A DNA stretch of 62,934 nucleotides, filler included, from Sluysia triapertura (lineage: Eukaryota): the NCBI GenBank assembly GCA_046118255.1. It is 5 parts of 5 records of this genome, joined end to end, with 100 filler letters (N's around TTAATTAATTAA, not from the genome) between each part and the next. Parts side by side here need not be neighbours in the genome. Positions count along the whole stretch, not along the records: positions 12,668 to 25,191 come from JBJNIA010101545.1; 4 more parts are not named here. One strand, given 5' to 3'. The translations under genes were made by a program, and so were the position numbers. Below the pieces are notes generated by a model, which saw nothing but the letters and a program-made list of their open reading frames with translations, did no database searches and was not told where the DNA came from. This document shows, in pieces, positions 3,130-62,245 of the stretch. The stretch's first letter is position 1, and the number at the start of each line of letters is the position of its first letter.

Positions 3130-3679
3130 CGTACGATAATTATTATTATCATTAGTAATATAAACGTAACATTATTTTTTAAATCTTGAGATCATATAAT
3201 CATCTACAGTAAAATATAATTTTTAAAATCTTAAATCGTTAAATCAACTAACTGAGAAAACAGTTAGTTTATGCAACTTAATTATGGGTTATTTATTCAT
3301 TTTATTTTATTTATTAATTGCTTCACTAATTTATATAGCTTTAAATTATATTAAACTATTACATTCAATTGATTTCAAAAAACTAGAATTTAATTCTAGG
3401 AAGTAAAATCTTTTCAACGATTCCGTATAAAGGAATCCATGCAAAATTAATAACTAATTTCTATTCTTTATTTAATTTTGAATTTGTAACTTAAATTATT
3501 AAGATTTTTAACGTAGCAAAGATATAAAATTCACCTCCAGATAGAAGAACTTTATTGACATATTTTCTCCAAAAACTTATCTTGCAAAAATGCAACAGCT
3601 GGTCCTAGCAGGTAAGTCCAATGCGTTGGTGAACTCACATATTTAACTTACTTTATTCTATTTGCATACTTTTCTCACA
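3130..3679 (+). mobile_element. Solo LTR related to the LTR of retroelement 1
   Basis: 3370-3679 aligns by eye to the reverse complement of 24575-24850 (CTAGAATTTAATTCTAG; CCTAGCAGGTAAGT; CGTTGGTG.ACTCACAT; TTTTCTCACA end). Left boundary approximate. Confidence 0.75.
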
Positions 3680-4462
3680 TTACCAAACTTGTCTGGATTT
3701 AATATTTCCTAATTAATTTTCTAATTAAAAAGTGAATTTATCTTTTGATCACTTAAATTGTAATTTAAATTGATAAGTGATTTCTAAATATATGTATTCT
3801 TAAATTAATTTTTCCATCTACATTTCCATCTTCTTCGACATTATCTACATTTTCGTACGTATTTTCTTTGTCTTCATTGCTTATTTTGTATGTCTAAAAA
3901 ATTTAAAGAAAATAACAATTCTTATTTTTATTTCCATTTTTGGCCTTGCTCACCATCATCGAAAAATCAATTTAATAAAAAAATCAAAATTACTTTTATA
4001 TATTTTTGATTTCTGAAATATTTTCTTTGTCGACGACTTTCCAAAAATTAAATTATTTCCTATATGTTTATATGCATTCATTTCTTCTGCCACTTCACAC
4101 TAAATAATAATTATATTGAGTACTATTAAATGATAAAATAGCATCTTTCCATAATACATGATTTTGTAACTTTCAACTTAACAAATAATAATTTATCATT
4201 AAGATCAAGATAATCAGTTTCTGATGTTTATATTTTAAATTATGTATCACCATCATCATTATTTGTTCTGTTGATGAATAAATCTCTTCGAAAGCTGTAT
4301 TTTGTAAAACAAAAATATATAATTTAGTTTTTACACAACTCATTATTTATTATTAAATATGGTTCGTTCATTTTTCGTTTATAGTTTTAACAACTTTTAC
4401 ATGTTTCTTACTCGTTTCTTACTCAAAAGTAATATAAATAAAAATATATTTGTATGATGCAG

Positions 4463-4616: not shown

Positions 4617-4802
4617 ATGAATAATGTATGATATAAATAATGTAAGATATCAATAATGTATGATAAAGATAATGTAAGATATCAATAATGTAAGATATAG
4701 ATAATGTAAGATATCAATAATGTATGATATATATGATGTAAGATATCAATAATGTAAGATATAGATAATGTAAGATATGAATAATGTAAAATATGAATAA
4801 TG
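4617..4802. repeat. 16-bp minisatellite (AATAATGTAAGATATC variants)
   Basis: About 11 tandem units of (A/G)ATAATGTA(A/T)GATAT(C/A/G). Confidence 0.9.
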
Positions 4803-7526
4803 TTTAGGGGATTTAGTTTATGAAATATTAACTTTATCGGACGCCGATCTAGTAATGTTTGGAATGTTACGAATTTAACAATGTTTGTATATAAACTATT
4901 GAATTTAGTTTAGAAAACTTTGTTGGTTAATAAATCTTTTAATCTTGACGTCAAATTTTATATAAACTTTATTCGTATTATTGATTCTAAATTCGTTATA
5001 AATAATACATTTAAAACCTTTACATAGTTTAATGATAATCAAGTTACAGAAATAAATTAACAAGACATTAACAACTATAAATTTTGTATTTATATTAATA
5101 TTAGGACAAAAAGTGTAAATTTTATTACTATATTTCATCTAACTAAAAATGAGAATTTAAGTTATGTAAAAAGTCAACAAAAGAAAAATTTACATTGTTG
5201 AGATACTGCACAACTCGTGAATTCCGCGCCAATATGTCTTGATCTTGAAACCATGAGTAATCGGTGAACTCAATTTTATTAGAATTCACTTCTATTTTAT
5301 TTTTGAATAAAGAAAATTCTAACAGAGTAAAAACCTTTATTATATCACATTTTGATAATCTTAGCATACGCTCTGTAAAAATATTACACAATTCGCTAGT
5401 AGTGAAATCATTGTTTTCTCCACTATTATTCTTACAAATAATCGTACAAACGTTTGTACAATCATCACTAATAACATTATCTTAATCAGTAATTTTATTC
5501 ACTTTATCTTTTTTAGATGTTTTATAGATAATATTTATTTTATAATTCAAAACATTTGATAAATCTAATAATTTGAGAATAACTATGAAAATTCTAACAA
5601 TTAATATAAAAATAAATTCAAAAAATGATGTTATCGTTAGCAGGATAGATAAGGCAAAGTCGCTACGAACATTTATTTCATCTTTCATATCTAATACAAA
5701 ATAGGATAAGTGACCACAAAACGTTGTTGTTGATTTATTATAAAAAGTCGTAAGATAGCTGAATGAAAATGTAACATGTAGTAGAACATTATCTTGAGCT
5801 ACGAATTTTAAATTATATTTACTATGAACAGTCATATAAATGTTAAGTGAAATGACCATATTCTCTTTATCACAACTGTAGCGTTTTGAAAAATCAATTG
5901 AGATGATCATAAATTTATCAGCATTATTCGTTTGACTTAATGTAGTATTACTCTTTTTCTTTTAGCATATCGTCTAAACGTAATTGAGAATCGAAAATAT
6001 AATATATTTCATTAAAACGTTAGCTCTCAGCAGCTGAACTAGTTCTTTAAAAAATAATAAACCCTTACTATATGTATACATTGGATCCAATGGCCATTCT
6101 AAAACTGAAACTATGTATTCTGAATTACATGCGCAAATTAAATAATATCGTTCTATGACATATTTGAGTTTTGCATATAATTTACTAATTATTAAACTAA
6201 TTAATAATTTAATAATTATTATTTGTTGCTATTCTCAGTTGATGCTGGAGAAGACTTTAATAAGACATCAGATATTTGATAAGTAGAATCAGATTTTGTT
6301 TCGTATAAATTTTTAATATCATTTACTGATTGACGAAGTGATACAATTAGTTCTATGTCAGAACCAAGTTAAGAGTTTTATTGTGATTCTTTATTCATTT
6401 TTACTTGCAAGTTTCGTATAATTTCTATAGCATAAAATATTTGTAATTGTGAAATTTTGACGGAGTAATTTACTTTTACAAAATTTTTTTGCAATTAAAT
6501 TTTATTTTTGTATCAGATGACCATTGATTTGTCATCCAACCAGAATTGTTTACACGAAAGGAGAATGATTATTATTCTGGTTGGATGGCCAATAAGAGTG
6601 AACCACTTGCACTGAAAATCAATAAACCAACCACCATCAGTAGTGACATTAATTAAAATGTATTGAAATGAATTAGCTACTGATAGTAGTAGTTACTGAT
6701 TTATTTAAATTAAAAATTGTGTTAATTAAAAAATGAAAATAATAATGGTGATAATAATAATAATAATAACGAAAGTGTTATTATTATTAACCCAAAAGCA
6801 TAAAATTCTACATTTCTTTGTATAACATGATCTTGCTTTGAATGCTTTAAATTTCTTACATATTTTAATAAATTTAAATGTATTTAAACTAAAGATCTTT
6901 ACGTATTTGTTGTTTTGAATGGGTTTTACGAATATAATTGACGTTTTCTGATATGGTAGCAGTTCTTCTGTTATGCAGTAAAATGTAGAACGTTAGAGTG
7001 AATTTCTGGATGATGACTAATGTTTTTGACTGATAGCGACATTTGAACATTGGGAGGTTGTGAAAAACAGATACATTGAGAAGAATGTGGTTTAGTGAAT
7101 GTAAAAGAAATAAATTATAGTACAACTCTTAGTATATTTGAAATGTTATTGTGCAATGTTAATGACATGATTTGTTTTCTTGCTGTTTTTAAGTGGTATT
7201 ATATTTTGTGCTGTTAATGGTTATGTGATGACAAATGATGAATTTAAAATGTTGTAATTGATTCGAAGGTGTCTAGTGGATAATTTCTAATGAGGTTGAA
7301 GTTTGATTGTTGTGAATATCCAGTAATATATTTTTGATGGATCTGTTGGTGTAAATTAGTGATATTGGATGTAAATGTGATTTCTATGTTAAGAAATTGT
7401 GAATGTGACTTGATTCTGGCAGATGAACTGTTTTATGAATGTAGAGGAGATGTATATATGAATATTAAAGTGTTAAATAATTAGTTTATTTTTAAAATGT
7501 AATAATAGTGAAGGTTAACCACCACA
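4800..7526 (-). mobile_element. Cargo-carrying TG...CA element, copy A (left end unresolved)
   Basis: Minus-strand start TGTGGTGGTTAAC at 7526; about 0.9 kb C/A-skewed segment homologous to 41800-42500; inverted repeat at 6533-6587; decayed ORFs at 4905-6180. Confidence 0.6.
4905..6180 (-). pseudogene. Disrupted unknown protein, homolog of ORF 46833-48137
   Basis: DPMYTYSKGLLFFK (about 6050-6090) vs TNPVISCNEGMLFFQ; INNTNKVYIKFDVKIK vs VNNLTKGYTPFDHDIK; split by stops into ORFs 5482-5910, 5143-5391 and 4905-5138. Confidence 0.55.
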
Positions 7527-8039: not shown

Positions 8040-9130
8040 TTTAAAATCCCTTAAAAACAGGTAAAATAGTAATGATAATAATAATCACGTTAACAATATT
8101 AAAATAATAAATGAAAATAACAAAATTATAAAATGTCCCTAACAAGAGCATGGATCTTCTTAATGCTGCAAATCTTTTTGTGTCTTGTGAATGTGTTGTA
8201 AAAATTAAAAATTTGTATTTACACTCTTTCATCATCCAAAAATCCCAAGTCTCACAATCAATCACTCTTTCACATAAATTATTCAAACCTCTTTGAGAAT
8301 CAAACCGACAATAACAACTTCTACAATTATATCGTACAATTATATCAAACTTCATTAGGTACAAAACATAGAAATTTGATTTATTATCAACCATCATTTC
8401 CTTTTACTCTACTCAATCTATTTTACTTAAATTACTTCTCGCATTAAAATAACAATCAATAATATTATTAACATACATAAAAATAAAGAAACTAATTTCA
8501 CTTTTTAGAATTTAATTGATTTTCGATTTTTCAAACCCAGTTTTCTAATGAAAAATGTTCTAATGAAATTGTTCTTATTCTCAAACAAACTATTTACAAA
8601 CATTTCGAACTCATTTATAGATTCTCCTCGTTCGTAGCAATCGTCGCATATTCCATTGATTACATTTGCATCACTCTACGCATAAAAAATTCAACATTCC
8701 ATAAGTAAAAATTAATTAAAATTTGCCTTTGCTCAGTATTAAGGCTTTCCTTGTCATGAACTCGGTCAAACCATACGTTCATCGAAAAATGTTTTCAAAA
8801 CAAGTACATACAGTTTCAAATTTAACGTGGCATTCCGCATTCACAAGTTATTCACAAAAACGTAATTTTTCTTAATTAAGTTAATTACGATTTTAATTAA
8901 TTAATCTATTTTTAGATTTAATTTTATTTTATGTTTCAAGGTTTTATTGAGGTTCCAAGGTTATTTAGTAATTTATAAGGTACTCAGGAGGCTCTAGATG
9001 TTGTCACCTTCACATCTTTGATTCCTTTTCTACTTCTTTATGTTAATTATTACCATATTAAACTTATCTTTATTATTTTAAACAAAAATTTTATTTTTCA
9101 AACATTTTAAAGATTTTGTCCACTTTTATA
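8040..9130 (+). repeat. Copy of 2-kb solo-LTR-like family X
   Basis: Shares CATGGATCTTC, TTCTTAATTAAGTTAATTA.GATTTTAATTAAT and TGATTCCTTTT.TACTT blocks with 36705-38160 and 51326-53325. Confidence 0.8.
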
Positions 9131-12667: not shown

Positions 12668-13028
12668 CAGTATACTAACTATTGAAATTATTAAGGTTTA
12701 AACTGATCAAGATAATAATAGTGGGTTTAATATTTAACAAGTTTTAAAGACGCAACAGTATACTTAATGATTTTATGTCGTATTTATCCTTAGTAGTTGA
12801 CTTACTTAATTGTATCTCCAGAAATTTATTTATGATCGGAATCCTTAAATCATATGTCCTAATGTTAGGCCAGAAATCTAATGTATCTCCCGTTTCAATT
12901 TATCGTAAAATAAATAGCACTTGGTAGGTTGGTAAATGAAATAATTTGATACTTGAATATTGTATAAGTCATAGGCAATATTAATTGTATTACTTACTAA
13001 CGGATTTTCTATATGAACAATATCACCA

Positions 13029-13469
13029 TCATAATGATAAATAGTCGGTGGTTATTGATGTTTTTAGAGTTGTAGAAAATCCTCGAAAAGCAAGTGGTTT
13101 AGTCAGAATTTTGTGTTTCTGTGCCAATATCAATTTTGAGTTATGTTTCATTTTATATTCGAATTCCAAAATGAGTGTAACTTGAAATAATTGATACTCA
13201 AATAAGTCTTCACATGATATTATCCAGTAAAAAACGTGTCGATTAATGTGAAAGTCGTTTTGACACCAACTTTGAAGACAAAATTTCATAGTAACATTAA
13301 CTATTTTTGCACTGCTTAGATTGATAGTAGCATAAATATCCTTTTGACCTGATTCTAGAGTAATTCGAGGTTGGTTATTCTTTGATATCCTATCATATGA
13401 GTATTTTTTGGTAACGCTTGCATATCCGAAATATATGTTAAACAGATACAAGCCACTAAAGTAGATCAT
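13029..13469 (-). CDS. Putative secreted/membrane accessory protein, unknown function
   Basis: 146 aa ORF with hydrophobic signal-like N-terminus (MIYFSGLYLFNIYFGYA), several Cys and N-glycosylation sequons; overlaps the stop of the upstream ORF. Confidence 0.4.
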   Translation of the reverse strand: MIYFSGLYLFNIYFGYASVTKKYSYDRISKNNQPRITLESGQKDIYATINLSSAKIVNVTMKFCLQSWCQNDFHINRHVFYWIISCEDLFEYQLFQVTLILEFEYKMKHNSKLILAQKHKILTKPLAFRGFSTTLKTSITTDYLSL

Positions 13470-14085
13470 AAATTCGTTAGTTGCATTCCGTTAAACGCAA
13501 ATGTATAATATCCTTCTATATCATTTTCGTATGTAAGGGAAGGTGATAGTAGTATCCCTAGTGGTGGATTAAAGTCAAATTGATGTGATGTAGTATAATG
13601 ATCATCAATGTCCTTATGAGATGATATATTCGAAAAAGAACATTTATTCATGATGAATTTTGCGATTAAAACAAATATAAAAATTAATGCAATTACTATC
13701 ATTATCGTTAATATGTAATCATTTCTAAACATGTCAAATATTGTCGGGGTGTTTTTTGTACCTCTTAAAGCAAAATGTAAACGTTCGATTTTCTTAGATG
13801 ACAAATAAATTCGTGCTATGATGTATCGTTCCTCATTAGCTAGAAAGTCCGAATATATTGTGTATGGATTTACTAAAGTATTCATACGATATTCGGAAAT
13901 AATCCAAGTGCTAAAATTGATTCGAGCCGGACGTAGACATGATAATTGAATTCGAATATTACTATACAATAACTTAACTTTCAAATCTGCATCTTAGTTA
14001 TAAAATTCGAAACACTCAAATTTGTAATGTTGACTGTTACATTGTGCAACTGAAATTATCGTTAACAATACTATGGGTAATAAAT
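13466..14085 (-). pseudogene. Putative type I membrane accessory protein (paralog 2)
   Basis: Signal-like LLPIVLLTIISVAQC upstream (one in-frame stop), then CLRPARINFSTW...EERYII...LHFALRG domain and TM segment YILTIMIVIALIFIFVLIAKF. Confidence 0.55.
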
Positions 14086-14906
14086 TATGTTTAATCTTAT
14101 GAGTTCTCGAAAGATTACTATATGCAATAACATTCACTATAGTCCCTATATTACAGCGAATAATGTCAGCATAATAAATAATCCATTTACTAGTTTTTCG
14201 GTCTGTTTTTCTAATGATACTTTCCTAAATGCAGCTGTATTAAATGTTGAATTATACAGTTCGTTTTTAAATCTAATTTCCCATTGTTAAGTGAATATTA
14301 ATGTGTCATATGACTGAATGACTGAATTGATTACCCACATTGATTTTATTGACTTTTATTACAAATTGATCACACATATGGTATTGATTTTATTTTTTGA
14401 TTTTTATTACAAAATTTTATGATTTTTGAAATAATTATTTATTCAAATTTTATCTAGGTAAGACTTTATTATATTGTTTATAATTTTTGCATGTGGTGTT
14501 GACATGGTACAAGATTCTGAATGAAAATAATACAGATAAAAAAATGAAATGATACATGAAAATATATAAAACAATACGTTAGTTTAATTTTTATATTAAA
14601 TTTTTTTAATTTTAGTTACAATATCTTATATGAATTTAGGAATAAAAAGAATTCTTAACTATGATTTTTCTTAATAAATGGATTAATTGTTTTGATCTTT
14701 TTGTATAATCCTGCTCTTTTATAGAGGCGTCTTATTTGACGATGACGTCTATTATGCTTCTGGGACTTTGACAACCCAGAAGGATAGTTAACAGGTGGTA
14801 TCTCTATTAAATGTTTTTTTACGTTTTTCCTTAAGGTATTATGGGTACGTGATTACTACTTCTTGCATTTCAATGCAGTGATCCAGTAAATATGATGGAA
14901 TTTTCT

Positions 14907-15116
14907 CTAAAGTATATAAATGTTGGAATTTCCCCTTATAAAAATGTGGATTTCCTCTACAAGTGTCCTACACAATGGGCAGTTCATATATTCTGTAGTA
15001 GTAAAATGGAAAAGATTGATTATACATTTGAAATGAAATTTATGAGAACAAGGATGTGCTTTTATGTAATGTTTATGTATAGAGTGTTGGCATATTGGAC
15101 ATCGATGGAAATACAT
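14907..15116 (-). CDS. RING-H2 (C3H2C3) zinc finger protein, putative E3 ubiquitin ligase
   Basis: CPIC-x13-CSHKFHFKC-x14-CPLC; polypyrimidine acceptor TTTTATCTTCTTTTTCAG lies 3 nt before the ATG. Confidence 0.85.
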   Translation of the reverse strand: MYFHRCPICQHSIHKHYIKAHPCSHKFHFKCIINLFHFTTTEYMNCPLCRTLVEEIHIFIRGNSNIYIL

Positions 15117-15389
15117 TGTCTGAAAAAGAAGATAAAAACATAATAAGGTAATAATATTTTAAAGTTAATTAGTTAATTAATTAACATAATAAATTATGAT
15201 CCTAATTTATGTACACGCTAAAAACTACGAGAGATATTAAACATTATTTATGTAAAGTTAGGTGACCGGTTGGACAGAAATAAAACCGTCAACATCGATC
15301 ACTCGTAACTTTTCTATATATATTGTTTAATCCTATACTTTAATTGTATGTGTCAATCTACGAGGTATTCCTATATACTTTTTATGGCT

Positions 15390-15725
15390 TCAGTCGATTC
15401 TTTAATTCCCTGTGTAGCGAAGTGAAGCTGCTTAATAATTTTAGCCTGATGTTGGATGAATATTATTATATATCTATCTTCTGATAATAAATAGTCTTTA
15501 CAAATTGTTACTGGGTATTCCGTGTTTGGTAAGACATGTATTTGTAATTCTCATATACTAAAATTGAGTCTTGCTGGGTTGATACATATATAATGTGCCT
15601 TAATATTCTTAGTTACCATAATTTGAACTTCTGTGTCGAAATTATAAAAATCCAAGTATTATGATTTGTAAATTCTCTGTGATATCCGTAATTGATATCA
15701 ATGTTAGTAAGGTGAGTAGCATCAT
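15390..15725 (-). pseudogene. Disrupted paralog 1 of the membrane accessory protein
   Basis: Manual translation MMLLTLLTLISIT...CINPARLNFSI*...NTEYPVTICKDYLLSEDRYIIIFIQHQAKIIKQLHFATQG aligns with ORF 13466-13984. Confidence 0.7.
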
Positions 15726-15814
15726 ACCCTATTATTAAATCTTATAATCCTGTTACAAGTAATAGTAATAAATAGTGAACAGCATGTAGATTATGATAAA
15801 GATTAGAAGCGCAA

Positions 15815-16312
15815 TTATAAAACATTTTGTATTTCTAACTTTTTCTTACTTACATCCTTACTTATTTTCTTACTTATATTCTTATTTAATTCGGTAGTAG
15901 TATTCGTGACTCGGTTCGTTGTAGTGGGTAATATTGTACTTACTGTTTTATTTATATACTTTTTCTTAAAAATGTTCATGAAATCTATTGTTACTGACGC
16001 CATTATCGTGGTGTATTGAATAGAGTGCTCACATTTGAAAATATCATGTATCACAGAAGGTTTCTTTATTATTAATGGCTCAAAATATATGCAATACATA
16101 TCAAAATTATAATCAGGAATCTCGTTTTTGTTATCAATTTCAGCGGTCCAAAAACTAATGAATGTATTTGAAGGAAAGAGGTTTTGTTTAATATTGGTGT
16201 AGCTTGTTAAATTTACTGAATAATTCGTCATCATAGTTGTCAATTGAAATAGAAATAGCATAAAAGTTATTATATAAAGATATTTATTATTTGCGATTGT
16301 TCTTATAAACAT
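15815..16312 (-). CDS. Putative membrane-anchored/secreted glycoprotein, unknown function
   Basis: 165 aa; hydrophobic N-terminal segment, multiple NxS/T sequons, Thr-rich stalk; hydrophobic TM-like stretch just downstream of the stop. Confidence 0.45.
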   Translation of the reverse strand: MFIRTIANNKYLYIITFMLFLFQLTTMMTNYSVNLTSYTNIKQNLFPSNTFISFWTAEIDNKNEIPDYNFDMYCIYFEPLIIKKPSVIHDIFKCEHSIQYTTIMASVTIDFMNIFKKKYINKTVSTILPTTTNRVTNTTTELNKNISKKISKDVSKKKLEIQNVL

Positions 16313-16529
16313 TATACTGCTATCACTATTGCTAATACTAATACTATTATCAGTATTATTATTATCATTATTATTATCTGATCCGATACCTGAAGTTCAA
16401 GAAACCGTGGTATCCCACCAATCGAGATTTTCCTAATTTGGCGTTGGTGATGGTGGTAATACTTGATTTAATGGAGCAATTTGATAATTTTGCGGTTGTA
16501 CTGCGGTACTGTTCTTGGCATCGGAGGTA

Positions 16530-16865
16530 AAACTAATTGTGCCTAGAGATATTTTAAGAAATCCTAATCTTCCGTGTATTACTATATTTTCTAATTTACT
16601 TAATGCATCCATTCCTAATATAATATCTTATGGGCATCTTTCCCAAACTAGTATTGTTTTAAATAGATCTACATCTAAGATTGTTAGTTGACATTGTAAT
16701 AGAATATGTGAGCCGTCTAGTGCAAATAATTGTATTCCTGCTTGTTTTAACATTAACTTCTAAAGCATTCAGTACATTATAATTAATAATAGTATTATTC
16801 GAACCTGTATCTATGACTGCTAGTACCCATCTCTGATTGAACTTAATAATCTGAACTAGATGGTT
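16530..16865 (-). pseudogene. Retropepsin-type aspartic protease (frameshifted), 3' of integrase
   Basis: Manual translation IKFNQRWVLAVIDTGSNNTII (DTG at about 16803-16811) ... CP*DIILGMDALSKL (about 16590-16630): both the catalytic and the C-terminal ILG.D motifs are present. Confidence 0.88.
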
Positions 16866-17950
16866 TGTATGTTAAAAGAAGAAGTTACACTTTTTGTAAC
16901 TTTCCTATCTCTTAAATTATATTCATTATTATGTGCCAATTTGCATCGATTTACATGCACGACAAAAGTTTCTGCATTCACATAATTAGGTTTATTTATA
17001 TATAAATTAGTGGAAGTTGTTTTCATCACTTCATAAAGTCCTTTAAATGGTTTGTGTAGTTTTGGAGAATATCCTGGTTTCGCTATTGGATAGTCTACCA
17101 ATACTTTATCTGATTTGCTTTTTGTCATAATTATCTTTATAAATTTCCTGAGTGTAATGTATTTGTAATCCAGCGCGTTTCCATATCTTGTAAATTCTCT
17201 CTCATAATAATAACATATTCAGGAGTTTCCATGTATTGAGATGAAGGTGGAATCCAGTCTAAATCTATTGGCATGTTTGAGTGTCTGCCGTACATAAGAT
17301 AGAATGGTGTAAAATTAGTAGCAGGATGTACTGAGCTTCCATACGCAAATAAGCATGGTGATATATATAAATTTCAATCTTTCTGTCTTTCGTTTACATA
17401 TGATTGTAGCATATTTATTAATATTCTATTAAATCTTTTTACCAATCCATCGGTCTGTGGCTGATACGATGATGTATATATTTTTAAAATCTTAAATATA
17501 TTTGCAACAGATATTATCGCATCACTAGTAAAATTGGTTCCCTGGTCAGTTAATAATTTTTTTGGAGTTGCGTATCTATATATATTACTTTTTCTACTAA
17601 TATTTGAGCTACAGTTTAAGCTTTTTGATTAGGTATTGGATATGTTTCTGGTCATTTTGTTAAATAATCAGCGAATATTATTATATATTTATTTCCATTT
17701 ATTGTTTCTGGCAATGGTCCCATTATATCCATTGCGGTGAATTCCGTTTAAAATAGTGGTATTGGCATAGGTCTTAATGATACAACATATAGCGCAATTC
17801 TTACACCATTCTTTAATATCTTCTTCCATTCTATCCCAATAATATTTATTTTTAATTCTTGATAATGTTTTTCTTGTTGATAAGTGTCCGCCTAATTATC
17901 CATCATGGTAGTGAATTAATAGTGGTGTTATTAAAGATTTTGGTACAATT
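16856..17950 (-). pseudogene. Integrase (HHCC, DDE core, GPY/F-like C-terminus)
   Basis: HYHDG*LGGHL...WCKNCAIC; AMDIMGPLP; LLTDQGTNF; YQPQTDGLV; TPFYLMYGR; KPFKGLYEV; stops and frameshifts present. Confidence 0.93.
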
Positions 17951-19550
17951 GTTTTCCATTCATCCTTTGAATCTCTAAAGTGTAATATACCATCTGTTAT
18001 TGATAACTTTTTAGCTTGATCTTCATTTAATAATCCCCTCACCATTGCTTCAAAAGCATATGACATTTCTTCATCTTCTCTTTGAAGTTTTATTATTTCT
18101 TTTGGCTCTTCAGATTTTCCCGAAGTTGGCATTATTTGAATAAAATTTATATTTTCTTTTTCATCATGATTTGTTAATTTTATATTTCCATCTTCATCAG
18201 TATTTGTTAATCTTGACATACAATCCGCTCCATTGTTCATTGAAAGTGGTTTATATATTATTTGTAAATCAAATTCTGCTAGCTTTGTGAACAATCTATT
18301 TAATCTACTAACTTCATCTCTATGATTGTATAAATATGTTAATGGTTTATGATCCGTATATAAAAGCACTTTCCGTCCCAATAAATAGTGTCTGAATAAT
18401 TTGCGTGCATAGACAATTGCTAAACATTCTTTTTTAATTGTTGAATAATTTAATTCAGCTTTATTTAGTCTCCTACTTGTATATGCTATTTTTTATATGC
18501 TAAATTTTATATGCTAAATTTTCTTTATTCCTTTGTCCCAGAATCGCTCCTATTGCAAAGTTACTAGCATCTGTTGTTAGTTTAAATGGTTTATTCATAT
18601 CTGGAAATATTAATACTGGTGCGGTTGTTAATCTTTTCTTTAATTCCATAAACGCTTTTGTTTGTTCTTCAGTCCATTTAAATGTTACATTCTTTTGTGT
18701 TAGCATCCTTAGTGGTCTAGCTATCTTCGCAAAATCTTTCACAAATCTTCTATAATAATTGGCTAATCCTAGAAAACTTTTAACTTTCTTAACATTATCT
18801 GGTGGTGGATATTTAACAACTTTTTCTATACTTTTAGGATTTGGTTTTATATCTGTGTGTGAAACTTTGTGTCCTAAAAAGTCAACTTGTTCTTCTGCCC
18901 ATACACATTTAGTCGGTTTAATCTTCAGTCTTGCTACTTCAAGTCTTTTGAGTGTATTATCTATATCTACAACGGAGTATCAAAATCCTTAGAAAAAATT
19001 ATTATGTCATCAATGTAAACCATTACATTCTTACAACCGGACAGTACGAAATTCATACATCTTTGAAATGTTGCCAGTGCACCTGTTAATCCAAACGGCA
19101 TTTTTTCACATTCATATAATTCATCTCCCACGAAAATGCTGTTTTTTGTTTATCTTTTTCGGCTATCTCGATTTGCCAATAACCACTCTGCAAATATTTA
19201 GCATTTTCTAGTTTATCTAACATTTAATCAATTCTTGGTAATGGAAATACATCTTTTCTTGTAATTTTGTTCAATTCTCTGAAGTCGATACAAAATCTCA
19301 TAGCTGTATCTTTTTTCTTAACTAGTAATACTGGTGACGAGAATGGAGAAAAGCTTGGTATAATTACTCCGGCCTTTTTCATTGTATCTATTTGATTTTT
19401 CATCTCTTGTTGATTGCATAATGGAATTCTGTAAGGCTTCTTTCTAATTACTTTATCTTCTATTAATGGAATTTCATGTTTCTTTATGACGGAATTTCCA
19501 ATATCATATTTATTTCTTGCAATTGCCCAAGGATATCTGTACATAATTTT
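17950..19550 (-). pseudogene. Reverse transcriptase and RNase H (Ty3/gypsy type)
   Basis: [48 protein letters not shown] (about 19003-19020), TTDASNFAIGAIL, LYTDHKPL, ADCMSR. Confidence 0.95.
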
Positions 19551-21035
19551 ATATAATGTCGTGCCAAGCTGCTTGAATATCTTCATTAGAATAGATTCCT
19601 GATTTTGGAATGTTCTTTGTAGTAGAAAATTTTAATTTTGTTTTTAATTCTGTTAAACCTATAATTTCCCGTGTTTTAACTTGACTTCGATGTGGTAGAG
19701 ATATCCAAAGATTATCATCGATTTTATATTCTGGAGCCATTACATTAGAGCAGTGTAGTGTTTTCGGTTTAAGTCTATTAGCTGGAATAATAATTCTCGT
19801 AACTGGTTCTAAATAAGTATTTATATATTACCGGTAATTCATTAGTACATTCGCTTTCTTGTCTAATTTGTACTTTCACTTCTCCCATCAACCTACCAAA
19901 TACTCCTTCTTCTGGGTTAGTTATTGCTACAGCTAATTTAGTTCTCAATATTTCTTTATTTAATTGACACTCTATCGCTATCATGGCTTGATAAACTTTT
20001 TCTAGTGACATCAGTCCTAAATGACAATAAAATTCAATTTTGTTATTAAAATACGTGTTTAATTGTAGATTCTTTGTATCTAATCCTTTTTTAACTTGTA
20101 ATATTGTCTTTTCTGATAGATATATTCCTTGATAGTTTGTTTCTATGATTTCTTGTCCACATCGAACTACTAGTTTTTTTGATAAAAAATTTTTCCATCT
20201 TCTTTCTTATTTGCCATTAGAATTGTTGGAGTTTCAATTTCATGAAGTCTTTTCCTTTCAGGTATATCTAAATTATCTTTATAAATTTGCTTTTTATTTA
20301 TTTCTTCTACTGCTAATTCATCTTCATTTTGATACATAAATCCCGAAATTAAATTAAACTTAATTTGTTTTAAGAATATTAATGAGCAGTGATATTTTTC
20401 CAATTCATATATTAGTATTGATTCACCAGAGTCACAACTTGTTTGATCGCTCCTGCAAAATGGTCTAGACATCATAGTACCTTTTTCTAAATTAAAACTT
20501 TCGTTAAAACATTTTAAACTTACTACATGTGTTTCTTGAGCTACTACGTTGTGATAAATCTTTCCTTCATATTCTATTGATCCTCTTTCGCAAGTACTGT
20601 CGATTAATACATCACCAGATGTTCTAATTTTGTAAATTATTTTCTCGTTATTTTTAATTCTTAATTTATCTCCTTTGTTTAAGCTTATGTATCCAGTTCC
20701 AAATGTATCATGACAATTGTTCGGCGATATTTTAAAGGTTTTAATATGTTCGATATATCGATAATTGAAGAGTGACTGTGATGTCCACAATACCATATTA
20801 CTGCAGATCTTTTAACTAAACATTCTCTAACTAATGTCGTAATAGATTTCCTTCTTGATAAACATTTAATACTTTCATATCTTTTATTTTGACTCTATTT
20901 GGTCTTGATTCAGGAAAATCTTCGGTATCTTATAAAGAGAACTTTCTTCCAATTTGGGGTTGGCTACAATCAAAAGCTTTTAGCATTAGTTTTATTAAAT
21001 CCGAATAATGCCAATAAAACAATTAAAAATAACAT
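19550..21035 (-). pseudogene. env-like viral fusion glycoprotein, chuvirus/Jingchuvirales-like; C-terminally truncated
   Basis: Signal peptide MLFLIVLLALFGF, KAFDC..., [65 protein letters not shown]: motif series I recall from chuviral-type glycoproteins. Confidence 0.75.
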
Positions 21036-21080
21036 ATTATTTATTGAAGTTACAAATTGAATGATCCATTTGTACTTCCC

Positions 21081-21126
<46 letters not shown>
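21081..21126. repeat. (TTA)n microsatellite
   Basis: Perfect run; explains the poly-Leu ORF 21057-21293. Confidence 0.95.
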
Positions 21127-21127
<1 letters not shown>

Positions 21128-21223
21128 TAGTCGGGTTATCGTGTTAAGTGGTTCATTTAAAATATTCTTTAAGTCCTTTATAATATTTTTCCATCCTCCT
21201 AAGTTTTCAATTAGAGTACCTAA

Positions 21224-23100
21224 TTACTTATCAGTAAAGTTTATAACCTTGTCTATTTTTTCTTTAGTTAAGAGTGTCGCTTTATTACATTGAAATATTA
21301 TGTAAGCCATTATTATTTTAAGTCTATCTCTATTGATTCCAGCATTAATTTGTTTGTTTAATATATTTTTATATTGACCATTATCTATAAAGTCACTTAA
21401 ATCCGTATTCTTATATTTTTCTTCCATAACTTTAATTATCTTGATTAATGCAGCTTTGTATTCCTTTAATTCAGGTAAAAGTGTTTTATACTTATCAAAG
21501 TTAGAAAATTTATTAGATAATAATGCGTAAATTATAGTTTTCGTACTTAAGGTTTATTCTATATTCTTGTAAGTAATTTTGGTTAAATCAATAGGTTTTC
21601 TATGTATTGGGGTTGGTATTACTGTTTCATCATCATTATCCTTAATTTTTCTAGGTCTACCTGGTTTTCTTTTAAAAGTGTTTGTTTCTTTATCTTCAGT
21701 TTCAATATGTGGATTTTTATTTAAATCTCTTACGTAATCGGGTTTATCTTCAGTATAATCATCATTGTCATTGATTATATCTATAATTTTACTTTCATTA
21801 ACTTTATTATTATTTTTATCATAATTGTCTTCCATTAATTCTCGTAGTAATGAACGTGGAGTTCTATCTAAATCAACATCGTTGTCATCATTTATTAATT
21901 CATCCAATTTTCTTAGATCATCGGAAGGCTTAGTGTGCGCCATTATAACTGCGGAAGTCATTGATGCTTCCTCATGGTTTCCATTCATTGATGGATAACC
22001 GTAAACATTTATATAATCATTAAGTAATAGTTTTCTGTCATAAAAATATAAATCAACATCATTAATATTAGAGCCATTTGACTTGAGTAATTCTATAATA
22101 TCTTTAGTAATTGAAGTAACGGGAAGTTCCATATAATATTCAAAGAGTTATTAATAATTATACTTATTCTCATTAGTTCTTTAGGGATATGTTTTCTTTC
22201 TTTTTGTCCTAATTTTCTTAATAATTTTCTTGCCTTAATCTTATATAAACTATCTTCTTTACCTAAAATAGCTAATACTAATTTTATATCATGTCCATTT
22301 TGTATACTTAATTCCGATTTTAATAAATCATTTAGATTTTCATTTAAGTCTTTGCCATGTGTTATATTAGATAAAAATTCTTCAACTTTTTGATTAACTT
22401 CTTTAGTTTCTGGGGTATTTATTTTATCATTAGCAGTTATTATTATTGATTCCGTCTCTTCTATTTCCATATCTTCTGTTGTATTTCTTCATAATCTGTT
22501 TTATTAAATATATTTTCTACTTCTTGGTCATCACTAAGTTCATTATTTGGTTGTTTTTCTTCTTGATTTGATTCTTCTTCGGTTGAACTTGATTCTATAT
22601 TTGATTTTTCCTCTATTGGAATCGATTCTGTATTTGATTCTTCTTCTATTTCATCATTACTTTCTACTGACTTATCTAAATTTGGTTTCTTCATCTTTCC
22701 TTCCCATTTGTCAATTAATTCTTGAATACTTTTATCTTCATTTGATATTACTTCTTTTATCTATTTTATTTGTTCATACTTTCCTCTGAAGGTTGTTCTA
22801 ATAATTCTCGAATTTTAACCTGAATTGGTTGGATGGTTAATCTATTTTCTTCTTTTTCTCGTTGTTCTCTTCTTTGTTTATCTTTTTGAAATTTTAAATA
22901 TCTATCATACATATAACTCATAAAAATTTCGTTTTCTTGTTTATTTTTAAATCTATTTTTTTCACAATCCAATCCAGTGATATAGAATACTCGTAACATT
23001 GCATTCTTTTCTTCATCTGAAATTAATTTAAGATATTTATCATCTTCTTCATCACTACTCGTCTCCCTTCTTCTTGGTTGTCTTCTGCTTCTGTTATCTT
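21224..23100 (-). pseudogene. Long acidic/charged ORF2 or gag extension with AT-hook
   Basis: Contiguous frameshifted ORFs 22766-22999, 22461-22694, 22093-22470, 21554-22132 and 21224-21427; E/D/K-rich; KRKPGRPRK at about 21650-21675. Confidence 0.6.
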
Positions 23101-24091
23101 CTGATTAACTTCCTACAATCTCTTGCATAATGTCCTTTCTTATTACAGTTGTCACAGATTAATTCTCCATCGATATTTGTTTGAGTCTTATTATTATTTT
23201 CATATCTTGTTGGACTTTTACTTCTATTCCTATTGAAACTAGAACTTGGTGGCCATCTCGGTGCTGGTCTCTGTTCATAATTAGAAGCAGCATAATTACT
23301 TGCTCTATTATTTTGGAATCCTCTATTATTATTATTTCCTTTATAATTGTTTGAGCTACCCCTGTAATTGTTTGAATTACCTCAAAAATTTCTGTAATTA
23401 GCATTGCCTCTATAATTATTTGAATTTCAATTATTATTATTGCCTCTACGTGGGCTATTATGTCGGTCCTGACTGTAGTTACCATCATTATATTCTTCAT
23501 AATTTCGTGAGTTAGATTTATTATCATTATAATTATTTCTTGTTAATTTCGGGATTTTGTCTCCCTTTTCTTCATTGTCGCTTATGTAATCAATATTATT
23601 CTTATTTTTTTATGCATAATTGAGAGTTCAATGCTCCTTAATATTTTAATTACTTCTTTAAAAGGTTTTCCTTCTATTAAGTTAACATAAGTTATTAATT
23701 CAGGTCGTAATCCAGTTTTTAATTTATCTTTCAATGTTAATTCTCTGTTACCATCTGGAATTTTGGCTCTAGCAACAAGGCTTTTAAGAGCGCAAGCACA
23801 TTCATATACAGATTCATTAGGTTTTTGTACTTTAGTATTGAGCATTTTTGCATAATATTTACCCATATCATCAAGGGCTATCTCTTCTGTAAATGTATTA
23901 ACGAATTCGTTCAATGTTTGTTTATTATTATCACTTATTTCTTTTATTTTCTCGGCTTCATTCCAGCCGTTAGCTTCTGCTATACTTTCGTATTCAAGTA
24001 AGAAATCTCAGAGATCTTCTTCTGCTCCGTCAACTTTTTTCATTTCAAGTAAAGACATTATTGGATGCATTTCTCTGTCTAATTGTGCCAT
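23100..24091 (-). pseudogene. gag (capsid-like plus CCHC zinc knuckle)
   Basis: MAQLD...DFLLEYESIAEANGW; KVQKPNESVYE...LKTGLRPEL; CDNCNKKGHYARDC at about 23115-23157. Confidence 0.9.
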
Positions 24092-24548
24092 ATATTCTTT
24101 AAATTCATTAGGTAAAACCATATAATTCCTTAATTTTGATCTGTAATCTTCTGAAAAAACAATTTGCTTATCTATTTTTCTTAAAGTTTACTAAATCTAT
24201 CAATAATCAACTTAGGGAGTAATAATTTTACATAAATTTATCTTAGTCTTAATACAATTATTCCAAAAATGCTTAATTCTTAATTTTAATTCTCAAATTA
24301 ATCTCTACTTAAATAATAATCCTTAAATTCTTCTTAACTACTTAATTCTTATATGAGTTATTGCAAAATTCCTTTAAATTAGTTAATTCGCCTTAAATTC
24401 TTCTTAATTCCTCTAAAAATCTTATTTCTTTCTTATATTATTTCGATACTGGTCCTCAAATTCAATTCTATAGCAAAATTCTTCTTAATCAGAATTCCTA
24501 AAAATCTTATATCTTATACTTATTTATGTTATTTATATTGTTGCAATT

Positions 24549-24564
24549 GCTCGTCTGAGCACCA
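24549..24564 (-). promoter_or_regulatory. Putative primer binding site TGGTGCTCAGACGAGC
   Basis: TGG-starting GC-rich tract 10 nt downstream of the LTR end (...CTCACA) and upstream of gag. Confidence 0.7.
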
Positions 24565-24574
24565 GTTTATTCTA

Positions 24575-25191
24575 TGTGAGAAAAGTGAAGCAAATAGAAT
24601 AGAATATAAGTATGTGAGTCCACCAACGTGCTGTACTTACCTGCTAGGGCCAGACGTTGGATTTCTTATAAGTGTCAAAGAAAAATTTAGTTTTTTCGTT
24701 AATGTCTCTTGTCTGAAGGTAGATATTTTAAAGATTTTAATTTGAGTTATTAAATAATTTGAGTTAGTTATATATTTTACGAATGATTTCCTTGTATGGA
24801 ATCAATAAATGAAAATTTACTTTCTAGAATTAAATTCTAGATTTTTTGAAAACTGTAAATACTGGTATTTTAATAGATTCTATAACTATTCAAGTTGAAA
24901 AGATCTTAATACGAAAAATTCCTTTATTATGCACAAAAATGTAAAAATTATACAAATACAGTTGATAATAATGATAAAAAAATTTACTTTAATTAACTAT
25001 TGTTAGTCAATTATCCTTAATTCAAGTTTATACATAATTTATGCATTGCGTTTATGCATTGCGGACAAATGGTTGGTAATTAGTCTATGTAAATATTATA
25101 AAATAATTAATATGATTATGTTGGGGTAAAAGGCCTAAAAAGTTCCAAGTAGTATAATTGAATATATTGAAAATGAAATTGTTAGACGGGG
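24575..25191 (-). repeat. 5' LTR of retroelement 1 (distal end uncertain)
   Basis: Ends in CA next to the PBS; homologous to the solo copy at 3130-3679; contains CAG|GTAAGT at 24635-24643. Confidence 0.75.
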
Positions 25192-36100: not shown

Positions 36101-36200
36101 NNNNNNNNNNNNNNNNNNNNNNNNNNNNNNNNNNNNNNNNNNNNTTAATTAATTAANNNNNNNNNNNNNNNNNNNNNNNNNNNNNNNNNNNNNNNNNNNN
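36101..36200. other. Assembly gap/linker
   Basis: N44-TTAATTAATTAA-N44. Confidence 0.98.
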
Positions 36201-36704
36201 GAACCATTTTACAAACATTTTGAGTTCACTTATGGATTCTCCTTTTTCATAGCAATCATCTCATATTCCATTCATCTAACTTTCGAATGCGGAATTCTAC
36301 GTTAAATTTGAAACTGTATTTTTTCGAAAATACCTTTCAATGAAGGTATGGTTCGACCAAGTTCATGCAAGGAAAGCCTTAATATTCAGCAAAGTCAAAT
36401 TTTAATTATGGAATGTTGAATTTTTTATACTTAGAATGATGCAAATGTAATGAATTGAATGTAAGATGATTGGTTTGGATGAAGAGAATCTCTAGAAGTA
36501 AGTTTTAATTGTCAGACATTTTCACAAAGAAATTGGGTGTGAAAATTGAAAATCAATTAGATTCTGAAAACTAAAATTATATTTTTTATGTATGTTAACA
36601 ATAATAATGATTATTATATTAATGTGAGAATTAATTTAAGTAAAAGTCGATTGAGTAGAATAAGAGAAAATGACAGCTGATTATAAATCAAATTTTTGTG
36701 TTTT
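36201..36704 (-). repeat. Inverted partial copy of family X
   Basis: Reverse complement of 8360-8840 (e.g. GTTCATG.CAAGGAAAGCCTTAATA). Confidence 0.8.
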
Positions 36705-38160
36705 TGTGCGTCTTTATAATTATTAGTAACAGTAAATCAATATCAGTTTAATTTGCTTAAATAGAAGCGCAATAATTTTAATATTCAGTATATAAAGTAT
36801 GAACTATCACAAATTTTCTAATTTTACTAAGGATATTTATTCAACCCAAAAAATTAAGCTCTTTATTCAAATTAATAACAATAACTCAATAATATAATAA
36901 TTACAAAATCAAAAGGAAGTCATTATTATGAGTTTCTGCTTTTTCTAAATGTCTAAATTTCAAAATTAACAATAATATTTATGACAATATTAAGAGCCAG
37001 AGGTAACGCAACCTAAGAAAAAATTAACTATTATCACGCTTATCAAATATAAATTTCCAAAAACAATACAAAAACAAAAACCGTTTCAATAAAACCGCCC
37101 CAAAAATAAATTTTTCATTATTAAAATATTAAAATTATATAATAAATTCAAAATTTACTTAAAGCATGGATCTTCATCATTTTCATTACAAATTGTTCTT
37201 TTTAAGTAAAATTTTTAAGTGTTCCTGTTCATATTTTTAATCATCCATTCATTCCCAAATATAGAATTAAACATTCTCTCACTGCAACATTCTTTGAAAA
37301 TTAATCCGACAATAATAACTTTGACAGCTGCATGGTACAGATTGTCAAACTTAAGAAACTGATTTATGATTATCTCTTATTTTTATTATTCTAAAACAAA
37401 CCACTCAAATTTGACTTTGCTCAATATTAAGGCTTTCTTTGCATGAACTTTGTCAAACCATACCTACATCGAAAGGTCTTTTCAAAAGAAATACATATAC
37501 ATTTTCAAATACATATAGAGCATTCAAAAGTTATTCACAAAAGCGTACTTTTTCTTAATTAAGTTAATTAAGATTTTAATTAATTAATCTACTTTTAGAC
37601 TTAATCTTATTTTATGTTTAAAGGTTTTTATTGAGGTTCTAAAGTTATTTAGTAATTTATAAGGCATTCGGGAGGCCCTAGATATTTTCACTTTCACCTC
37701 TCTGATTCCTTTTTCTACTTTTTCATTTTAATTATTACCATACTTAATTTATTCTTAATACCAATAACAATAATTTTAATTCTCAAATATTTTTAAAGAT
37801 TTTAAATACTTTATAAGGTGATTTGAAGATCTCAGATGCTTATAAAGGTTTCAAGAATACTTAATGGTTCGTAAAGTCTTGGATGATCTCAAAGTTCACA
37901 TATTGAAAAGTGTCCCAATACCTTTAAAGGTCTATTAGTGTATTTTAAACTTCATAAGGTCTCAATCTCTTATATAGGTGTTTGGAATTCTAAGGTATTC
38001 TTTAGCTGTTAACATTATTATAGATGTTTTCATTTTCATGATTCTTATTCCAAAAATGTTTACAATGTTCAATCCATCACTTTGAATCAGTTCTCCACTC
38101 ACTTTATATTTCTATATGTTTATCACTCATCTCCTGATCCACAGGTGAGCAATTCCAACA
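36705..38160 (+). mobile_element. Family X solo-LTR-like copy
   Basis: Starts TGTGCGTC (homologous to the TGTTGCATC start at 51326), ends CAG|GTGAGCAATTCCAACA; shared core blocks. Confidence 0.7.
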
Positions 38161-60239: not shown

Positions 60240-60730
60240 TATGTTGTAATATTTTTATGATGTAAAAATTTTAAGTTTTTCCTTTTATACTTTCTCATCA
60301 TCCAATCAATCCTAAGTTTCGCAATCAACACTGTCTCACACAAATCATCAAAACCTATTTCAGAATTAGACCGACAACTACATGTTATGGTCTGTAAAAC
60401 TTTATTAGATACAAAACACAAAAAATGGATTTACGATTATATTCTACTCTGCTCGATCAATTTTTACTTAAATTACTTCCCACATCAAAATAACAATCAC
60501 CAATATTACTACCATGCATAAAAATAATGAATTTAATTTTAGTTTTTATAATTCAATTGAGTTTTGATTTTTCTCAAGCTTCCGTAAGGTCGCAATACCC
60601 TACATATGTCTTTGAAACTTCAAAGTATTCCTCAGTTTTCAACATAATTCTAACTTTAACATTAATTACAATGCTCAATCTATCACTTCATATCAATTAA
60701 TTCCTCACTTTATGGTTCCAGATAACTCTT
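60240..60730 (+). repeat. Internally deleted family X copy
   Basis: Aligns to 8190-8530 (TCATCATCCAA, CACA.AAAT.AT.AAACCT, ACCGACAA). Confidence 0.7.
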
Positions 60731-62245
60731 ACTGATTTACAGTTGATCAATAGCAACATTATGACTTCTTACTACATTTCTTAAACTCATTCCGTATTTT
60801 CATAACTAATTTACCGTTACCTTCAAAATATTTATTCGTATTATTTATATTAATTTTTTTATTAATTGTACTGACGTTTGGAAAATAGATATTAGTTAAC
60901 TTCAGTTTGCTATTTTGTTGACAATTAAATACGTCGAGCTTTGCCTTGTAAATCGTACATTATAAGCGAACTGTATATACGCTTTTTAGTATAAGTTAAA
61001 ACGTAGCAATTTCGATATATTTATATTATAACTTTGCTGTTAAATTATTTGGAAGTCGTGACCATGTGATTTTGTTGGAACTATTATAATTTGTGAATTT
61101 TGCATAAATTATTCAAGATTTTTAATCTTTTCTAAGATTAATAATAGTATTTATACCATTAAAAATATAATTCATTTTCATTAATACACTTTTGGCTATT
61201 TGGGTAATTTCAACTTAGTATAGTATAAGAGAAATAGGTGAAATAAATTTCATTTGATTTGAACTGAATATTTTTTAAGTGTCTCATGGATTTAATTATA
61301 AATCCATTTACAATAACTGAAAAGAACGGTATTCTTATAGAGCATAAGAAAATTCATCCGTTTTAAACAGCGTGGACATTAGAAAAGAACAGATTATTGG
61401 CCGTATCGGTTAAGAGAGAGATTAAGATCTAAGAAATATAACTTCCTACATTTCTTTATCTTTTTTAAGAAAGTCCTTTAGACATGTAACTCATAAAAAT
61501 ATAAAACATACACTATAGACACACCATAAACAGATATCATTATTTCTAAGTAGAACACTTGCATTTATAATTCTATGTATTTTATTCCATTACATTCGCT
61601 TTGCTAGTTAATATTCGTTCATTTTTGTTATAGTTAGTATTCACTTTTTAATGAATTTCTCATGCTTCATTGCTATTTGCGTTTGATTCGAGATATTTTC
61701 TGGAAACTAATTACATGTGATGAATTCGTGCCTTCATCTTCATGTTTGTTTACTAGTTTCTGATTTCTACCTTGTTATTTAAAGGTATTTGTGAAGATAC
61801 TTTTGGAGTTTAGAAATTTTAGATAAAGTAAGTGCAATACAATTTTATTTAAAATGTTTTTATTTTAAAATCATTTTTAACAATATTATGTGGTTCATAT
61901 AATATAATTAAATTTTATTCTAAAATATAATTAAATATTCGTATGTATTCTTATTTATGCTTGAATAGTGATGAATTTGTAAAATTCTTTAAATAAATAT
62001 TTAAATCATAAAATAAACTCAAGATGAAATTATTTGAATTACTTATAAATTTGTATTTATACATACATAAAATTAAATGTATGTATAAAACTATCCTTTT
62101 TTGATGTAATAATAAAACAATAAAGTGCTTAATTTATTTTGTGTGAATATTACTATAACTTTGTGAATAATCAATAAAAACAACAATTTATTACTTTATT
62201 TAATCAATAAATAATTTCATATTATTTTAAAACGTTATATTAAGA

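Follow-up and report, generated by a model that had tools for sequence, protein, structure and literature searches.

A probable membrane-protein tail on pol, with a candidate cluster of small genes behind it, in a dead Burro-like Ty3/gypsy element of Sluysia triapertura

The stretch of Sluysia triapertura DNA analysed here (62,934 nucleotides (nt) of assembly GCA_046118255.1, hereafter the window) consists of five contigs joined by N-spacers. One of these contigs, JBJNIA010101545.1 at positions 12668-25191, is a decayed Ty3/gypsy element, a dead copy with stops and frameshifts in every part. On the minus strand it runs from a partial 5' long terminal repeat (LTR) through a primer-site-like sequence, gag, a spacer, an envelope gene (env) of the gB type, reverse transcriptase (RT), RNase H (RH) and integrase (IN) to a protease (PR). 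The remaining 3.8 kb or so of the contig had been described in an initial annotation as an accessory region of tightly packed, same-strand small open reading frames (ORFs), several of them encoding signal-peptide or transmembrane (TM) proteins and one a RING finger, resembling the accessory regions of complex retroviruses. The protease and the features behind it are as follows, with lengths in amino acids (aa):

16436-16871, minus strand: aspartic protease after integrase, in two frames (Pfam gag-asp_proteas)
15753-16435, minus strand: ORF A, with a linker, a hydrophobic leader, an ectodomain of about 100 aa, a Thr-rich stalk and a TM segment in another frame
15374-15725, minus strand: ORF B, a broken paralogue of ORF D with a hydrophobic start (from alignment to D)
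14907-15116, minus strand: RING-H2 ORF of 69 aa (Pfam zf-RING_2, PF13639, 32.5 bits against a cut-off of 27.3)
14655-14852, minus strand: Arg/Lys-rich piece in the RING frame, past three stops (from translation)
14100-14516, minus strand: ORF C, an acceptor-like site, an ATG at 14505 and a heavily broken frame (from sequence)
13466-14086, minus strand: ORF D, with a signal segment, an ectodomain of about 105 aa, a TM segment and a cytoplasmic tail (from hydropathy and translation)
13029-13469, minus strand: ORF E, 146 aa, unbroken and predicted to be all-beta, its start overlapping the stop of D (ATGA)
12747-13032, minus strand: ORF F, broken pieces (from translation)

The RT, RNase H and integrase domains stand in the gypsy-type order of Ty3/gypsy elements (Metaviridae) in the Pfam scan, and the named matches are gypsy-type pol. 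A search with the RH-IN region returned 553 matches, 120 of which were listed, and the best 11 of the 120 listed (P0010-P0020, 35-42% identical to the pol of this contig) form a clade with the window sequence (FastTree support 0.998; 23 sequences, midpoint root, P0021 omitted and 11 of the 109 other listed matches taken as outgroups). All 11 relatives continue in frame past integrase. A TM segment follows integrase in 9 of the 11 compared with none of the 109 other listed matches, and a protease motif in 3 of the 11 compared with 1 of the 109. The DNA of P0011 (L001), which stops right after the TM segment, reaches that segment beyond one stop and makes P0011 a tenth relative with a membrane anchor. 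This locus and a second (L002) are the two loci, of 4.7 and 1.9 kb, obtained from 59 candidates in a scan of GTDB. Both lie in bacterial metagenome-assembled genome (MAG) records (JBOFCV010000293.1 and JAYSWT010000083.1, respectively), where an animal-type pol is most likely contamination; P0011 carries the label Turicibacter because its pol sits in such a record.

In these relatives, the usual tail consists of a hydrophobic segment, beta-rich repeats, a stalk, a TM segment and a cytoplasmic end. The one tail tested, that of P0018, matches fibronectin type III (FN3) clusters in the Atlas (score 0.95, with 10 of the 10 best family matches in agreement). The tails of 7 of the 11 relatives terminate in T-x-V/L, and ORF D terminates in T-N-L; we take the T-x-V/L terminus to be a class I PDZ-binding pattern. 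In P0012, 1,129 aa follow integrase and include several hydrophobic segments, and ankyrin repeats lie downstream of the protease. A protease upstream is present in 4 of the 11 relatives, and the three with a downstream protease have an incomplete N-terminus. Two protease-like domains follow integrase in P0017, and in P0002 an env is followed in frame by two to three of them; protease duplication seems common in this clade.

The protease of the window carries the DTG motif, and its match to Pfam gag-asp_proteas (E 4.6e-4) lies under the curated cut-off. It also matches the post-integrase protease of P0012 (independent E-value 5e-5), and tblastn alignments with P0010 and P0012 cross the IN-PR junction. 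An assembly artefact was ruled out as the source of this order, which three relatives carry in a single ORF. The post-integrase position of the protease is, as judged from these relatives, a family trait, and the earlier claim that the region 3' of pol follows a retroviral-type protease holds. Nor does a 3' LTR or a polypurine tract (PPT) directly follow the protease at the protein level, as the ORF continues behind it in 3 of the 11 relatives and leads into a membrane-anchored tail in two.

One frame is common to the C-terminus of integrase, the C-terminal half of the protease and ORF A, with two stops between them. ORF A also has the leader-domain-stalk-TM order of the relatives' tails, with the TM segment frameshifted. 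Because of this shared frame and architecture, ORF A is probably the C-terminal tail of pol and not a separate accessory gene. The first part of the supposed accessory region thus probably belongs with the element as proposed, but is better read as an extension of pol, and for ORFs B to F membership is a matter of indirect evidence.

The sense strand of 16435-12668 holds ATG-initiated ORFs of 165, 146 and 139 aa, while the longest antisense ORF has 83 aa. Dinucleotide shuffles of the region gave three ORFs of at least 120 aa in 0 of 500 cases and one in 4 of 500, and none of 74 overlapping segments of the same length from the other contigs held more than one such ORF. Chance ORFs were rejected on these counts, and the same-strand arrangement originally noticed is borne out. 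The tight packing stands in part: hand-drawn blocks cover about 86% of the region (3241 of 3768 nt), yet it contains a 146-nt gap of 16% GC, and most of its ORFs are interrupted by stops or frameshifts. Several signal-peptide/TM proteins had also been proposed; ORF D alone passes the hydropathy threshold (signal segment 2.32, TM 3.61), whereas A and E have hydrophobic stretches at the N-terminus that fall under it and were seen by eye only, as was the TM segment of A.

A piece of the 5' LTR compared with all four blocks of 16900-12668 scored at the level of shuffles (the closest block being equalled by 3 of 60), while a control copy was found with a score of 247.5 (shuffles reached 101 at most). 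On this basis a 3' LTR within the region was rejected, in agreement with the absence of an intervening LTR reported before, and no purine run of 11 or more was found there. The contig stops at its end with neither a 3' LTR nor a PPT within it, and the element would reach the proposed length of at least 12.5 kb only if the entire contig belongs to it. The missing 3' LTR, and the fact that RING and beta-sandwich membrane proteins are common in hosts, would suit the view that B to F lie outside the element, as chance ORFs or as genes of the host next to it. This is very improbable, given that the ORF lengths go beyond chance, that the block is intronless, packed on a single strand, broken like pol and element-like in GC (0.277, against 0.283 in gag-pol and 0.240 in the other contigs), and that no homologues of B and D were found.

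ORF B begins about 30 nt past the TM segment of ORF A. It is identical to D at 36 of 91 positions (40%; pairwise E 1e-18, hhalign 98%), which makes the two, on this alignment, a diverged pair of paralogues. D has one internal stop, and no start codon precedes its signal segment. The search with D gave none among 41 candidates at E 1, and the B/D profile no match. The RING finger of the initial annotation is confirmed by a Pfam score above the cut-off and by eight ligands, read from the sequence, with the C3H2C3 spacing of RING-H2; its best match in PDB is the equine herpesvirus RING 1chc (E 2.6e-5), and it likely encodes an E3 ubiquitin ligase. Pfam found no RING in any of the 11 relatives. 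The Arg/Lys-rich piece behind it, which gave no family match, may be its tail. ORF C is doubtful as a gene, and the pieces of it that were scanned have no Pfam match. ORF E has no Pfam match and no usable match in the Atlas (best 0.76). AlphaFold models of D and E reach a predicted local distance difference test (pLDDT) of 38 and 41, and two Foldseek runs with the poor model of E gave nothing below E 0.001, the best hits (0.011) being beta-sandwiches. The resemblance of A, B, D and E to FN3 is one of motifs seen by eye, with no significant profile match. ORF F is either a new gene starting from a second ATGA or a frameshifted continuation of E.

We infer from composition, strand, decay and the absent LTR that B, RING, C, D, E and F are members of the element: their GC is near that of gag-pol, they share its strand and its degree of decay, and no LTR or long purine run lies between. 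Alternatively, only ORF A would belong to the element, and B to F would derive from another AT-rich, intronless block, joined to it by a deletion that removed the 3' LTR; such a block could be a fragment of a large DNA virus or the cargo of another element. This scenario as a whole is unlikely, though it has more in its favour than host genes or chance. Tight packing, ATGA overlaps and small membrane proteins equally suit DNA viruses, as is generally known, the best match of the RING is herpesviral, and the strand skews shift after pol. This copy already carries one deletion, the tails of the relatives finish at a TM segment and cytoplasmic tail, and a further same-strand ORF cluster lies at 6228-4905. 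However, no junction, LTR remnant or step in GC is seen, B lies so close to the TM segment of A, B and D are unmatched among 1.84 billion proteins, and the poor model of E has no significant viral fold match.

A third possibility is that the entire region once formed part of a single giant pol polyprotein in the style of Burro, the small ORFs being products of decay. The ORF1 of Burro has 4,873-5,140 aa, and its accessory ORFs may be subdomains according to the available text of PMC6431247; the long, repeatedly hydrophobic extension of P0012 and the many stops and frameshifts that cut pol here would fit as well. Against this, B, RING and E each have a start codon where their domain begins, the AT-rich gap and acceptor-like sites separate the blocks, D finishes in a TM segment plus tail like a complete protein, and the relatives lack a Pfam RING. 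We rate this rather less probable than a foreign block.

Two candidate expression signals bear on how the genes behind ORF A were read:

24635-24643, minus strand: splice-donor-like consensus CAG/GTAAGT near the LTR end, the sole AG/GTAAG site in the contig
15117-15175, minus strand: splice-acceptor-like site with a branch-point-like motif, 3 nt ahead of the RING ATG

Around the donor-like site, a block of 14 nt is the same in the two LTR copies of the window. By a simple score, the acceptor-like site ranks first in pyrimidine content among the 321 YAG sites of the contig, and similar sites stand ahead of the ATGs at 14505 and 15725. An acceptor with an ATG within 15 nt occurs three times, a number reached in 0 of 500 shuffles. 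Furthermore, ATGA ends 2 of the 3 long accessory ORFs compared with 0 of 12 other long ORF pieces. By these candidate acceptors and the D/E overlap, the genes after ORF A look separately expressed.

We therefore read the region, with a probability of roughly two in three, as the internal 3' portion of a Burro-like Ty3/gypsy element of GAG-ENV-POL order, now dead, in which pol carried a tail and separate small genes lay behind it. In a first layer, pol would have continued past integrase into the protease and then into a type I membrane protein (ORF A), a layout that is present in relatives as unbroken ORFs. An internal hydrophobic segment would route the pol tail into the endoplasmic reticulum, signal peptidase together with the element protease would free it from RT-IN, and the freed tail would be displayed on the surface of the cell or particle. 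In a second layer, B, RING, D, E and possibly C and F would once have been separate small genes. Their subgenomic RNAs would be spliced from the donor at the LTR end to acceptors before the start codons or, alternatively, be formed by host trans-splicing; flatworms also trans-splice (PMC8629364, PMC12582326), and this would use the same acceptors. E would be translated by stop-start reinitiation after D. By analogy only, the surface proteins, presumably beta-sandwiches, would aid a gB-type fusogen in attachment or serve as receptor decoys, and likewise by analogy the RING-H2 ligase would remove a host restriction factor.

A number of observations weigh against this reading. In the tree, the window sequence is sister to the whole clade and not to those members with a post-integrase protease. 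ORF A has no significant match to the relatives' tails by phmmer, slice profile or hhalign (the profile was built from 18 domain slices, 3 of them false, and hhalign used 15); D and E are also unmatched, and B reaches only 3% probability. AT skew falls from between +0.14 and +0.39 in gag-pol to between 0 and +0.12 in the 3' region, and GC skew is mostly negative from there on. No homologue of B or D was found in sets of 5.8 billion and 1.84 billion proteins (for A, C and F the scans covered only Pfam and the window). Copies in which these ORFs are linked to pol were looked for, as had been suggested, and a second copy of B to F is absent from the window. As to splicing, the thresholds were chosen after the sites had been seen, one of the three pairs of acceptor and ATG falls within the RING ORF, and acceptor-like sites counted by themselves show no enrichment (3 or more in 58 of 500 shuffles). 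Finally, the copy has at least one internal deletion, between env and RT, and a second, hidden junction is possible.

The part of the element upstream of the protease comprises:

24565-25191, minus strand: partial 5' LTR, 627 nt, ending at the contig edge
24547-24564, minus strand: primer-binding-site-like sequence beginning TGG (from sequence)
23097-24187, minus strand: gag region, broken, with a CCHC knuckle (Pfam zf-CCHC, 25 bits against a cut-off of 20.8)
21122-21553, minus strand: helical domain ahead of env with a BH2-like GGW motif (from sequence)
19567-21035, minus strand: gB-type env (Monjiviricetes fusion glycoprotein, Pfam PF24664), broken
16859-19556, minus strand: RT, RNase H and integrase, broken (Pfam RT_RNaseH, Integrase_H2C2 and a weak rve)

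The 5' LTR resembles a second copy at about 3230-3690, the similarity of both stopping at the same point. The primer-site-like sequence at 24564 is absent after that second copy, and tRNA and Rfam scans of the window were both empty. At 3230-3690 on the plus strand, this diverged LTR, a solo or 3' LTR with no primer site after it, keeps the 14-nt donor-like block. The capsid part of gag has no Pfam match. The helical domain ahead of env has neither a Pfam match nor a significant PDB match, and a two-sequence profile of it matches Bcl-2/Bcl-xL along some 20 residues, with no E better than 1. An AT-hook-like motif occurs in the gag-env spacer at 21690-21650 on the minus strand. PF24664 matches three pieces of env (E 1.5e-6, 8e-12 and 2.3e-9), which lies between gag and pol as in GAG-ENV-POL errantiviruses but is not intact, being broken and ending short of its own TM segment. 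The match of env to relatives stops at 19567 and that of RT begins at 19556; an internal segment has therefore been lost from this copy, and no protease is seen upstream of RT, where env adjoins it across the deletion. A second gag-env-pol element of this kind, further decayed and broken up by other sequence, lies at about 58500-50700 on the minus strand, with no protease recognised between env and RT; its similarity is lost after the integrase zinc finger, and it gives no information on linkage.

The closest described systems are Burro and GYPSM1 of dugesiid planarians. The available text of PMC6431247 describes for Burro an env flanked by gag and pol, together with ankyrin repeats, RING-related motifs and accessory ORFs, and reports decayed Burro/GYPSM1 copies in Dugesia japonica. 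The likeness extends to a CCHC Gag, a long spacer, a mononegavirus-like env before pol, accessory ORFs and additional regulatory domains. The differences are that Burro has the order PR-RT-RH-IN and exceeds 30 kb, with a single ORF1 near 5,000 aa, whereas the contig here, incomplete and carrying a deletion, gives at least 12.5 kb, and that section 7 of PMC6431247 makes no mention of small membrane proteins clustered at the 3' end, of a protease behind integrase or of a membrane tail resembling fibronectin. BIR, MATH/TRAF, ankyrin, dUTPase and SUMO-like domains were found in none of the 29 contig pieces scanned, ankyrin appearing only in the relative P0012. We call the element Burro-like and not Burro, because the domain directly ahead of env, which is BCL2-like in Burro, gives such poor matches here and the other Burro domains were not found.

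Elements of GAG-ENV-POL order with a gB-type env have been catalogued in flatworms, nematodes and bryozoans (available text of PMC13524379), and the errantiviruses of its Platyhelminthes group C1a, whose env is of the herpes simplex virus (HSV)/gB type, share gene order and env type with the element here, the copy in this window being the one that is not intact. By eye, the env motifs are far closer to the two Schmidtea mediterranea rows shown there than to the bryozoan, cnidarian or insect rows shown. Along with the low GC (0.24), this resemblance suggests a planarian as host. In the same text gag, env and pol are annotated, and 6 of 6 S. mediterranea elements have no tRNA site or LTR coordinates; their 3' regions are therefore not described in that part of the source.

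Complex vertebrate retroviruses have several small same-strand genes, probably spliced, between the core genes and the 3' end. The proposed likeness to them holds for the small same-strand genes in the 3' region, but not for the layout, which is Burro-like: pol here is of the Ty3/gypsy type, and a class III gB-type env stands before pol in place of the gag-pol-env order of Retroviridae. At most, the element works like these viruses, and a sequence relationship is not among the links found. For size, foamy-like endogenous retroviruses of fish reach 17 kb (cited in PMC6431247, available text). Among gypsy elements, bdelloid LTR retrotransposons have captured a 3' ORF3, in some cases with a TM segment and typically on spliced messages (PMC5408684, available text). 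This is a single ORF3 (env, GDSL, DEDDy or a small TM protein), in contrast to the several genes and pol-fused tail here, and that text does not contain the word RING. The available parts of PMC8532177 and PMC11410931 contain nothing further on element structure. In the literature covered, to which the primary description of Burro, supplements and Repbase do not belong, no account was found of such elements with a protease behind integrase, with a pol tail resembling fibronectin or with a 3' gene cluster that includes a RING.

Of the new points, the membrane tail that pol carries across the clade has the strongest support; the gene cluster behind it, reminiscent of complex retroviruses, is probable and comes from one dead copy. 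Giant elements with additional domains had been known from planarians before. Herpesvirus gB-type fusogens require partner glycoproteins, and the membrane protein that this clade attaches to pol is a concrete candidate for that role. The presence of a RING ligase and of duplicated surface proteins would indicate host defences beyond piRNA. How env-bearing retrotransposons spread between cells outside Drosophila is given as an open question in the available text of PMC13524379. One could go further and place the element in an undescribed invertebrate clade of env-bearing gypsy elements that independently evolved a complex-virus kit for entry and host control, although we consider this tentative and doubt it more than we favour it. 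The kit would jointly comprise an ORF1 gB-type fusogen, an FN3-like second glycoprotein with a PDZ-binding-type tail behind its own protease on pol, and, in a 3' cluster expressed through splicing and coupled reinitiation, duplicated surface proteins together with an ICP0-like ubiquitin ligase, a combination for which our confidence is equally low. If true, this would amount to a herpesvirus-like multi-glycoprotein entry system within a retroelement.

Several features were observed elsewhere in the window. The cluster at 6228-4905 (minus strand) is a tight set of same-strand ORFs of 159, 112 and 77 aa, the first with a TM-like segment, which has no Pfam match and adjoins a 16-bp tandem array at 4620-4803; it may be the cargo of another element. 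A MATH/TRAF domain over the Pfam cut-off at 62231-62719 (plus strand) may belong to a host gene, although Burro elements carry such a domain. At 48167-46836 (minus strand) there is a frame of 444 codons that encodes an mRNA cap guanine-N7 methyltransferase domain and contains a 69-bp tandem duplication, and at 41179-39981 (minus strand) Ig-like domains precede an adenylate/guanylate cyclase domain, the two lying in adjacent frames. A dispersed repeat family, probably a DNA transposon, occurs in direct and inverted copies at 8400-9100, 36200-37800, 52300-52950 and 60400-60570, one of them inside the second retroelement.

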